Assembly (NCBI GenBank): GCA_964462335.1
Contig: CAYWYG010000001.1
Span: 9,903-73,902, forward strand
Length of the DNA stretch: 64,000 bases
Origin: an uncultured Candidatus Saccharibacteria bacterium
Lineage (GTDB): Bacteria; Patescibacteriota; Saccharimonadia; Saccharimonadales; Saccharimonadaceae
Direction: 5' to 3'
Shown: positions 59,213 through 60,909 of the stretch, one piece after another
Position numbering within the stretch: the first letter of the stretch is position 1
Layout of the letters: each line of letters begins with the position of its first letter
The notes under the pieces: model-generated
The model's database searches: none
The model's input: only the letters and a program-made list of their open reading frames with translations
Told to the model about the DNA's origin: nothing
Position numbers and translations under genes: made by a program

Positions 59213-60592
59213 CTACTTACTACTCTTTGCGTCCTCTATGCCACCGATCATATAGAATGCACCTTCAGGTTTGTCGTCATGTTTACCATCGATGATCTCG
59301 CGGAAGCCTTTGATCGTGTCGGCAAGTTTTACGTACTGGCCAGGGTTGCCAGTGAATTGCTCGGCAACGAAGAATGGCTGCGAGAAGAAGCGCTGCATCT
59401 TGCGGGCGCGGTTGACGGTCAGGCGGTCTTCGTCTGAGAGCTCTTCCATACCCATGATCGCGATGATGTCCTGAAGGTCTTTGTAGCGCTGCAAGACTCG
59501 CTGGACTTCACGCGCAACCGTATAGTGCTCCTCGCCGACAATCTCTGGGTCGAGGATGGTACTGCTCGAGTCGAGCGGGTCAACCGCAGGGTAGATACCG
59601 ATCTCGGTCAGCGCACGGTTGAGCACGATGGTCGAGTCTAGGTGAGCAAACGTCGCCGCCGGCGCTGGGTCAGTCAAGTCATCGGCTGGCACATAGACGG
59701 CTTGGACAGAGGTGACTGAACCTTTTTTGGTGCTGGTGATACGCTCTTGGAGCGCGCCCATTTCTTGCTGGAGGTTTGGCTGATAGCCCACTGCTGATGG
59801 CAAGCGGCCGAGAAGTGCTGACACCTCAGAACCTGCCTGAGTGAAACGGAAGATATTGTCGATAAACAACAGCACATCTTTGCCTTCATCACGAAATGCT
59901 TCTGCCATCGTAAGGCCAGTTAGCGCCACGCGTAGACGCGCCCCTGGTGGTTCGTTCATCTGCCCAAAGACGAGTGAGGTCTTGTCGAGCACACCGGACT
60001 CTTCCATCTCGTTGTAGAGGTCGTTACCCTCGCGGGTACGCTCACCGACACCAGCAAAAACGGAGTTGCCGGAGTGGAATTTGGCGATGTTGTTGATCAG
60101 CTCGGTGATAAGCACCGTCTTGCCGACACCGGCGCCACCAAACAGGCCAACCTTGCCACCTTTGGTGATCGGCGCGATGAGGTCGATGACTTTGATACCC
60201 GTCTCAAGGATCTCCGTCTTACCTGACTGATCAGTCAGGGCAGGCGGGGTTTTGTGAATTGGCTGCAGTGTCGGGTTTTTGAGATTTGGTTTGCCGTCAA
60301 TCGCTTCACCGATAACATTGAACATGCGTCCGCTCGTGTCTTTGCCGACTGGTACGCTGATCGGCGCGCCCGTCGCGACTACTTCGGCACCACGAGCAAG
60401 CCCGTCGGTGCTACTAAGCGCCACTGTACGCACGCTCGTGTCGCTGAGGTGCTGGGCGACCTCAAGGACGAGTTTTTGACCCTCGTGTTGCACCTCGATC
60501 GCATCATATATCGCCGGCAACGCGCCTTTGGCGAACTCGACGTCGACGACCACGCCGACGACCTGGATAATTTTACCTGTGTTTTTAGTCAT
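59213..60592 (-). CDS. atpD: F1 ATP synthase subunit beta
   Basis: [10 protein letters not shown] Walker A and DELSEED-type region ([10 protein letters not shown]). Confidence 0.97.
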
Positions 60593-60909
60593 GATTCTTC
60601 TCCTTCTTTTCTCCTCATTGCTTCAAGTTCTGCCATATCGCGTTCTTCATCAACAAGTGATGCATACTGTGAAGCGAAATCAAACAAATCTGCTTCTTCT
60701 TGTGGCGTAAGCACTATACCTCTCTCTTCAAGTGCTCGTCGTATAGCTTGCCAGTCAGAGCGAACATACAGTAGCGCCTCATTTGACCCGTCCTCAACCC
60801 AAGGATCGGCGTTTTCATCATAGAGACTATCTTTAACCACCCCACGCATGTAAGAGGCATTGACATTGCCGGCAAGGGGGAAGGCGTTTTCCATAAGCGC
60901 CTGGCTCAT
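60589..60909 (-). CDS. 106-aa acidic hypothetical protein inserted between atpG and atpD
   Basis: ATGA overlaps at both ends: with the atpG stop at 60906-60909 and with the atpD start at 60589-60592. Confidence 0.6.

Follow-up and report, generated by a model that had tools for sequence, protein, structure and literature searches.

The window considered here, that is, the whole stretch of 64,000 nucleotides that was analysed (positions 9,903 to 73,902 of the forward strand of contig CAYWYG010000001.1, GenBank assembly GCA_964462335.1), comes from an uncultured Candidatus Saccharibacteria bacterium of the order Saccharimonadales and carries an ATP synthase (atp) operon with an additional gene, orf106, between atpG and atpD, which encode the gamma and beta subunits of the F1 part. 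A sequence-only reading of the window had described this open reading frame (ORF) as coding for an acidic protein of 106 amino acids (aa) without a recognised motif, translationally coupled to both neighbours, and had proposed that it might be an assembly factor, an inhibitory or regulatory subunit, or a selfish insert. Here, we have examined the gene, its relatives and the F1-gene junctions of related species.

A coupled gene between atpG and atpD and its family

orf106 lies on the minus strand, which the sequence-only reading did not state. The ATGA overlaps at its two ends were read directly from the sequence and are exactly as had been claimed, and the flanking genes match the NCBIfam models for F1 gamma (TIGR01146) and F1 beta (TIGR01039), which places orf106 within the string of F1 genes. 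In coding-strand orientation, the atpG/orf106 junction reads GTGGAGGCGATGAA-ATGA-GCC and the orf106/atpD junction reads AAGGAGAAGAATC-ATGA-CTAAA, and both starts are preceded by a Shine-Dalgarno (SD) sequence (Table 1). Because the ribosome-binding site of atpD is embedded in the last codons of orf106, the C-terminal KEGEES of the protein (which ends in RRKEGEES) is partly dictated by it, and the same overlap accounts for the recurrent ...EGExD(E/D) C-termini in the family. With an isoelectric point (pI) of 4.16 and 24 Asp and Glu residues versus 10 Lys and Arg residues, the protein is indeed acidic. Its G+C content at third codon positions (GC3) is 0.38 versus approximately 0.65 in the flanking atp genes. 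No terminator-like site was detected on the minus strand within the atp operon; thus, the co-expression with F1 subunits that had been argued from the tight two-sided coupling is the natural expectation, and orf106 would share the transcript of gamma and beta and be translated in step with them. The gene order orf71-atpG-orf106-atpD-IVP-atpC (orf71 and the intervening-sequence protein (IVP) gene are further inserts discussed below) recurs, almost without sequence differences, in at least eight independent assemblies and is therefore no assembly artefact. Only one nonsynonymous site varies among these eight nearly clonal assemblies, whose polymorphism is uninformative on selection.

Table 1. 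Features of the atp operon in the window (positions are those of the window)
Feature	Position	Strand	Basis or detail
orf106, gene of a 106-aa acidic protein	60589-60909	minus	ORF list, family, pN/pS, AlphaFold2 model
ATGA overlap of orf106 ATG (60909-60907) and atpG TGA (60908-60906)	60906-60909	minus	sequence
ATGA overlap of orf106 TGA (60591-60589) and atpD ATG (60592-60590)	60589-60592	minus	sequence
GGAGG SD of orf106, in the 3′ end of atpG, 8 nt 5′ of ATG	60917-60921	minus	junction GTGGAGGCGATGAAATGAGCC
AAGGAG SD of atpD, in the last orf106 codons, 7 nt 5′ of the atpD start	60600-60605	minus	junction AAGGAGAAGAATCATGACT
atpG (F1 gamma), 5′ neighbour of orf106	60906-61772	minus	TIGR01146, E=5e-81 (NCBIfam)
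atpD (F1 beta), 3′ neighbour of orf106	59213-60592	minus	TIGR01039, E=3e-242 (NCBIfam)
atpH	63510-63965	minus	ORF list
atpA	61977-63500	minus	ORF list
orf71, 71-aa acidic orphan ORF between atpA and atpG, overlapping both	61765-61980	minus	ORF list
129-aa 23S-rRNA-IVP / four-helix-bundle gene between atpD and atpC	58799-59188	minus	PF05635, E=6e-34
33-nt inverted repeats bracketing the IVP gene	58779-58811 / 59171-59203		82% complementary
atpC	58333-58752	minus	ORF list

An exhaustive HMMER search through 1.84 billion representatives identified 12 relatives of orf106, with E-values from 1e-61 to 1e-4; a word-seeded search returned only one copy, 99% identical, and its profile version added almost nothing. 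Most of the relatives are 92-107 aa long, and three longer proteins carry the domain with extensions. The reading frame, the length and the N-terminus are kept at 30-55% identity, and conserved motifs begin at residue 1 (MSxxxMExxFP(L/F)xxHPxA, ENANP, YxRSD and DFAxxYASLVDxEED). The family is defined by a domain of approximately 100 aa with the motifs MSxxxMExxFP(L/F), Y-x-R-(S/P)-D and (D/E)F(A/S)xxYA(S/D), all of which are present in the window copy, and seven residues (S2, P11, R50, L67, F78, Y82 and A83) are invariant. At position 15, where the family has a near-invariant His, the window copy has Asn.

In codon-aligned pairs of family members, the proportion of nonsynonymous differences (pN) was 0.21-0.55 versus 0.70-0.91 for synonymous differences (pS), and pN was far below pS in all 36 pairs; between the copies of two of the related loci (labelled L001 to L099), L015 and L081, the values were 0.21 and 0.78. 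The protein is therefore under purifying selection, and orf106 is a real gene; a lost frame or an absent synonymous-site pattern in relatives, which would have spoken against the sequence-only reading, was not what the 11 independent contexts of the family revealed. The alternative that orf106 is no gene at all, but a spacer ORF that arose by chance or an antisense shadow cast by a plus-strand feature, could draw on its short length, its atypical GC3, the lack of a known domain and a 189-aa plus-strand ORF that overlaps it. However, this would be extremely hard to reconcile with a frame, length and N-terminus conserved at such low identity, with synonymous sites that are saturated while pN is 0.2-0.5, with the confident structural model described below, with an SD sequence and coupled start and stop, and with the lack of any Rfam family match at the locus, and we regard the conservation, pN/pS, model and coupling signals as effectively refuting it.

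In all 11 independent Saccharibacteria contexts (L015, L081, L082, L083/L084, L085, L086, L087/L088, L089, L090, L091 and the window), which comprise all members with fetchable DNA, the gene lies between atpG and atpD, co-oriented with and usually overlapping both. An HMM (hidden Markov model) scan of all ORFs in the 99 fetched loci detected no member outside this slot, a pattern scan of metagenomes added one extra locus with the same atpG-atpD context, and a pattern scan of viral contigs detected no relative. The closest relatives of the window's atpG in a species-level genome collection are all from Candidatus Saccharibacteria/Saccharimonadales metagenome-assembled genomes, the top one (L001) at 86% identity. 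No name for the orf106 family was found in the sources searched; it is a previously unnamed family that is restricted to Saccharibacteria (Saccharimonadales).

Predicted structure and relation to ATP synthase subunits

Profile searches assigned orf106 to no known family. Neither Pfam-A nor NCBIfam contained a family at E≤1, in agreement with the earlier statement that no motif is recognisable, no family match was found in PHROGs or PADLOC, and a sequence-profile search of the PDB gave nothing below E=1.2, that is, chance matches only. Based on the 12-sequence alignment, AlphaFold2 yielded a confident model (predicted local distance difference test 92.9, predicted template modelling score 0.82) of the small, presumably soluble protein. 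The model contains helices at residues 2-8 and 18-27, a beta-hairpin (29-33/47-51), a helix at 53-62 and a long helix at 69-104. A compact alpha/beta head (residues 1-62) with the conserved FPLxxHP loop is predicted to pack on the first half of the 36-residue C-terminal helix, which carries the DFAxxYASLVDxEED motif, and the conserved hydrophobic residues of the family lie in the N-terminal loop and in this proximal half of the long helix. The distal half, which is charged, would project freely; its sequence is variable and partly fixed by the ribosome-binding site of atpD. A Foldseek search with the model returned nothing at E≤0.001 (best E-values 0.77 in the PDB and 0.09 in BFVD), and the best TM-scores of 0.2-0.5 were on fragments of the long helix. 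Hence the fold, as confidently predicted, is without a known relative in PDB or BFVD.

With regard to ATP synthase itself, no homology of orf106 to the F1Fo subunits alpha, beta, gamma, delta and epsilon was detected by Pfam, NCBIfam or hhalign, and no Pfam model of the known inhibitor families (IF1/IATP, zeta/DUF1476 and the epsilon C-terminal domain (CTD)) matched it at E≤1. An origin of orf106 as a duplicated piece of a neighbouring subunit was considered and rejected, as hhalign gave probabilities of 0.2-1.3% against Saccharibacterial alignments of atpA, atpG, atpD, atpC and atpH. The family HMM scored the epsilon subunits of loci L001-L099 at a mean of 3.6 bits, compared to -0.8 for shuffled, 0.0 for reversed and 0.43 for block-shuffled controls, and the best match reached 16.6 bits (L050, 7264-7686). 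The mean excess of approximately 3-4 bits is not significant: the epsilon sequences are all homologous and count as one observation, at approximately the 95th percentile (p of about 0.05). The aligned region joins the C-terminal part of the family (I-x-L-S/T-P...L-x-D-F-A...LVD-EE; ILSPxxxxLVDxAD) to the last strand and first helix of epsilon, and the alignment pairs a predicted helix of orf106 with a beta-strand of epsilon; we take this weak resemblance as no more than a lead.

These data bear on the possibility that orf106 is an F1-associated regulator or inhibitor, or a chaperone of gamma-beta assembly, which would be made in stoichiometric amounts through the coupling and would bind via its acidic C-terminal helix. 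We consider such a role conceivable but doubtful. The occurrence of the family in the atpG-atpD slot in each of its 11 contexts across deep divergence, the ATGA coupling on both sides, the purifying selection and the protruding 36-residue helix of the predicted model are all consistent with it, and small ATP synthase regulators can be overlooked, as the example of AtpTheta indicates. Even the epsilon subunit scores slightly above the controls, but this is a single observation of borderline probability in which a helix is aligned to a strand, and hhalign gives a probability of no more than 1.3% to any subunit. In addition, the GC3 of orf106 is far below that of its presumed atp partners, and the known inhibitors are free-standing and conditionally induced, those of the IF1 type being basic, whereas orf106 is constitutively coupled and acidic. 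The content of the same slot in other species, described below, also counts against an F1 role.

F1-gene junctions as variable slots

A survey of the atp operon in 80 related species loci, in which an insert was defined as at least 150 bp between neighbouring genes, revealed that all three internal F1 junctions are variable. The gamma-beta (G-D) junction contains an insert in 39 of 78 species (largest, 1070 bp), the alpha-gamma (A-G) junction in 21 of 76 (largest, 667 bp) and the beta-epsilon (D-C) junction in 14 of 75 (largest, 839 bp). The premise of the sequence-only reading that gamma and beta genes are normally contiguous is therefore wrong for Saccharibacteria. Nearly all cargo ORFs have the orientation of the operon and are closely packed, and for the most part they are mutually unrelated. 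Most are orphans, but some are ordinary enzymes, such as, at the G-D junction, a 126-aa nucleoside-2-deoxyribosyltransferase-like gene (Nuc_deoxyrib_tr) in oral Nanosynbacter-type genomes (L048, L049, L055, L056, L058, L062, L064 and L073), close relatives of which (e.g., L051, L053 and L066) have a junction of 21 bp, or a histidine phosphatase (His_Phos_1) and a NUDIX hydrolase in L061 (5879-6875). The nearest relatives of the window, L001 and L002 (95% aa identity in atpD), have different content in this slot, namely three other ORFs in L001 and a 139-bp palindromic non-coding filler in L002. Such fillers of 120-140 bp, which occur in L002 (5865-6003) and L006 (5865-5985) and contain palindromic repeats such as GAGTAGTATGCAG...CTACATACTAC, may represent element remnants or solo stems. 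A second small family of approximately 65 aa was also observed directly 5′ of atpD (L086, 4702-4899, and L032, 5864-6067, 46% identical; possibly also L029, 5867-6061, and L021, 3714-3923), which in L086 lies 3′ of an orf106-family member. We found no description in the literature of ORFs or a junction hot spot inside the Saccharibacteria atp operon, nor of the orf106 family or its fold; the family, the fold and the hot spot are all undescribed in the libraries and literature searched.

The cargo also differs in composition from the atp genes. In eight other carriers of the orf106 family, the GC3 of the family ORF is 0.35-0.47, which is below both flanking atp genes or, in L087, equals the lower one, and GC3 is below that of atpD in 67 of 86 cargo ORFs overall. 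Low GC3 is therefore a standing property of the cargo and not the sign of a recent event in the window genome. The cargo is also mostly acidic (18 of 21 ORFs at A-G and 36 of 43 at G-D).

On a tree of atpG and atpD, the carriers of the orf106 family are dispersed. The window falls with L001 and L002, neither of which has the family. The sisters of L015 are L025 and L034, that of L081 is L036, and these three have clean junctions of 20-34 bp. The atpG proteins of carriers are only approximately 54% identical across lineages. The family tree agrees loosely with that of the hosts (the window copy groups with that of L090, and L015 with L081), and ancient presence with many clean losses may therefore be at least as likely as transfer. 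No divergence spike, as a footprint of recombination, was observed in the flanks beside the insert in comparison with L001 and L002, and carriers share no partner family at the atpA-atpG junction, where their ORFs are unrelated to each other.

Two other inserts accompany orf106 in the atp operon of the window. orf71, at the atpA-atpG junction, has no Pfam or NCBIfam match; its sole homologue lies at the same junction in L006 (63% identity), and an identical copy is present in at least 23 contigs from several samples. It is part of the same junction-cargo phenomenon as orf106. The IVP gene at the atpD-atpC junction is bracketed by inverted repeats that consist of ATGAGGC-like units, and the family also occurs at this junction in L001, L002 and L029, where the copies are 45-63% identical and much more divergent than the flanking atp genes. 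The GC3 values of orf71 (0.37) and the IVP gene (0.34) compare with 0.61-0.65 for the atp genes and approximately 0.5-0.6 for most other genes of the window. A second PF05635 gene of 116 aa (32719-33069, plus strand; GC 0.38, GC3 0.37) lies between ybaB (32388-32675) and recR (33130-33735), with perfect 15-nt inverted repeats (32694-32708 / 33092-33106) containing AGTTTAC heptamers, which suggests that cassettes resembling intervening sequences may colonise conserved gene pairs in the window genome. No bracketing repeats like those of the IVP genes were detected around orf106 or orf71, and the latter two are therefore not the same kind of element as the IVP inserts.

The proposal of a selfish insert is only loosely apt for orf106. 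In this reading, a mobile or selfish element with the atpG-atpD junction as its target would have brought the gene as cargo or left it as a remnant, and would spread horizontally among Saccharibacteria, for example by natural transformation and recombination in the conserved flanks. Its patchy spread over the host tree and its low GC3 relative to the flanks would fit, as would the palindromic non-coding fillers at the same junction in some relatives and the fact that both IVP inserts of the window are bracketed like discrete elements. However, unlike the neighbouring IVP insert, orf106 has neither direct nor inverted repeats at its ends, and neither a motif (nuclease, recombinase or other) nor a fold match was found in it, so that it shows none of the features looked for in a homing endonuclease or mobile element (motif or fold, terminal repeats, copies at other loci and presence in viruses). 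Relatives are absent from the viral contigs and from outside the slot in the loci scanned, no divergence spike is seen in the flanks relative to L001 and L002, and the rough fit of the family tree to the host tree points to vertical descent with repeated loss. We therefore regard a mobile element as improbable.

Several other features of the window were noted. Directly 3′ of atpC lie an 88-aa coiled-coil ORF (58051-58317, minus strand) with an internal SNIAEVKSDIAEVKS repeat and a 291-aa ORF (57158-58033, minus strand) with a weak match, below the Pfam cut-off, to a cadmium-carbonic-anhydrase repeat (PF18484, E=6e-5), both of which are also found behind the atp operon of several related loci. 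The stretch of approximately 1.5 kb at 54160-55685, which separates a 1214-aa helicase-like ORF from a dus-like gene, contains only short overlapping ORFs in all frames and one tRNA-Arg (55042-55116), with no Rfam match. At 23976-24836 (minus strand), a 286-aa ORF without a Pfam match has a GC3 of 0.36, unusually low for this genome, and may be an acquired or accessory gene.

Probable role of orf106 and comparison with known systems

On balance, we lean towards the view that orf106 encodes a dispensable accessory protein whose gene sits in a cargo slot of the F1 string and is expressed by means of the operon. In about half of the species, unrelated genes, some of them enzymes, are found in this slot, and therefore the position between atpG and atpD does not imply a role in F1 and is by itself no proof that orf106 acts on ATP synthase. 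This is where the step of the sequence-only reading from position to an assembly factor, inhibitor or regulator fails to carry: unrelated enzymes and orphans occupy the slot elsewhere, close sister lineages lack the family and have intact junctions of 20-34 bp, the codon composition of orf106 is unlike that of the atp genes, and it shows no homology to F1Fo subunits or known inhibitors. Most likely, orf106 is not a core or obligatory F1 subunit. The insert between ybaB and recR, another one within a conserved gene pair of the window genome, also fits the view of an accessory cargo gene.

The following mechanism may be proposed. orf106 would be made from the atp transcript by translational coupling to gamma on its 5′ side and to beta on its 3′ side, each junction being a GGAG-N7-8-ATGA module. 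As such a module is present at both ends, insertion or deletion of the gene leaves a working gamma-beta junction; an ORF that brings its own SD-ATGA module could thus be gained or lost without breaking the coupling of gamma and beta, which might explain both the tolerance of insertions and the clean absences. orf106 would then be one of many interchangeable cargo genes at the F1 junctions of this phylum, for which the strongly and constitutively expressed atp operon may serve as an expression platform, and the protein itself probably acts by protein-protein binding through the exposed acidic helix of the predicted model.

Several observations weigh against this view of dispensable cargo. The restriction of the family to the gamma-beta slot, across lineages whose atpG proteins are so divergent, would also fit a function tied to F1, and the ATGA coupling at both ends implies that the protein is made in concert with gamma and beta, as might be expected for a partner protein. 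The predominantly acidic character of the A-G and G-D cargo may point to a constraint common to these ORFs instead of a random assortment, and the expression-platform rationale is itself something that we infer. Furthermore, the Asn at position 15 of the window copy, in place of the near-invariant His, means that a family-level function may not carry over to it fully. A more far-reaching idea is that the F1 junctions are a hypervariable slot for interchangeable, lineage-specific small acidic partners of ATP synthase. The orf106 protein, as one of them, would dock its helix on F1 either to tune or block hydrolysis or to chaperone gamma-beta assembly, and such regulators would be operon-encoded and swapped between lineages; we hold this to be rather unlikely.

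If orf106 only hitch-hikes, as the accessory-cargo view holds, it would still be an example of how, in Saccharibacteria, small co-translated ORFs frequently come and go at all three internal junctions of the essential, tightly coupled F1 string; about half of the related species carry a gamma-beta insert. Such turnover bears on the ways in which ultra-small genomes, having few promoters, take up new genes and get them expressed, and it makes the atp junctions a source of uncharacterised small-protein families that fold confidently. If, on the other hand, orf106 does bind F1, it would represent a bacterial ATP synthase regulator of a new kind, in a phylum whose energy metabolism may include an enzyme that runs in reverse.

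Among known systems, the small regulators of ATP synthase (IF1, zeta, AtpTheta and the CTD of epsilon) resemble orf106 in their small size, in a long helix that could insert into F1 (predicted in the case of orf106) and in a genetic link to ATP synthase, but none of them has sequence or profile similarity to it. Inhibitors of the IF1 type are basic alpha-helical peptides, whereas orf106 has an acidic pI and a predicted alpha/beta head followed by a helix. Zeta and IF1 are encoded outside the atp operon. AtpTheta is a cyanobacterial protein of approximately 48 aa that is encoded by a free-standing gene and induced in darkness or under stress; in contrast, orf106 is Saccharibacterial, more than twice as long, and start/stop-overlapped inside the operon.

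A second group comprises the additional genes of atp operons. Cyanobacterial atp1 (CGL160) is a non-subunit gene of this kind. atpI (urf6), cyanobacterial atp1, and atpQ and atpR of the N-ATPase operons encode membrane proteins, lie either before the Fo genes or between them, and show broad conservation within their operon type. They share with orf106 the nature of a small non-catalytic ORF that is, or in the case of orf106 would be, co-transcribed with ATP synthase genes, but orf106 is predicted to be soluble, is acidic, lies between gamma and beta, has no match to the Pfam family ATP-synt_I and is found in a minority of the species of one phylum.

The PF05635 IVP elements, one of which is a fellow insert in the same operon, illustrate how small ORF cassettes colonise conserved transcription units in the window genome. 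The gene at 58799-59188 has both the PF05635 match and the bracketing inverted repeats and orf106 has neither, and its predicted alpha/beta structure with a long helix differs from the four-helix bundle of that family. Phage 'morons' and genomic islets likewise combine conserved flanks with variable, unrelated cargo of lower GC3 that is patchy among close relatives; the atp slots differ from these in lying inside a tightly coupled essential operon, and their cargo is co-oriented and start/stop-overlapped with its neighbours rather than forming an autonomous transcription unit.

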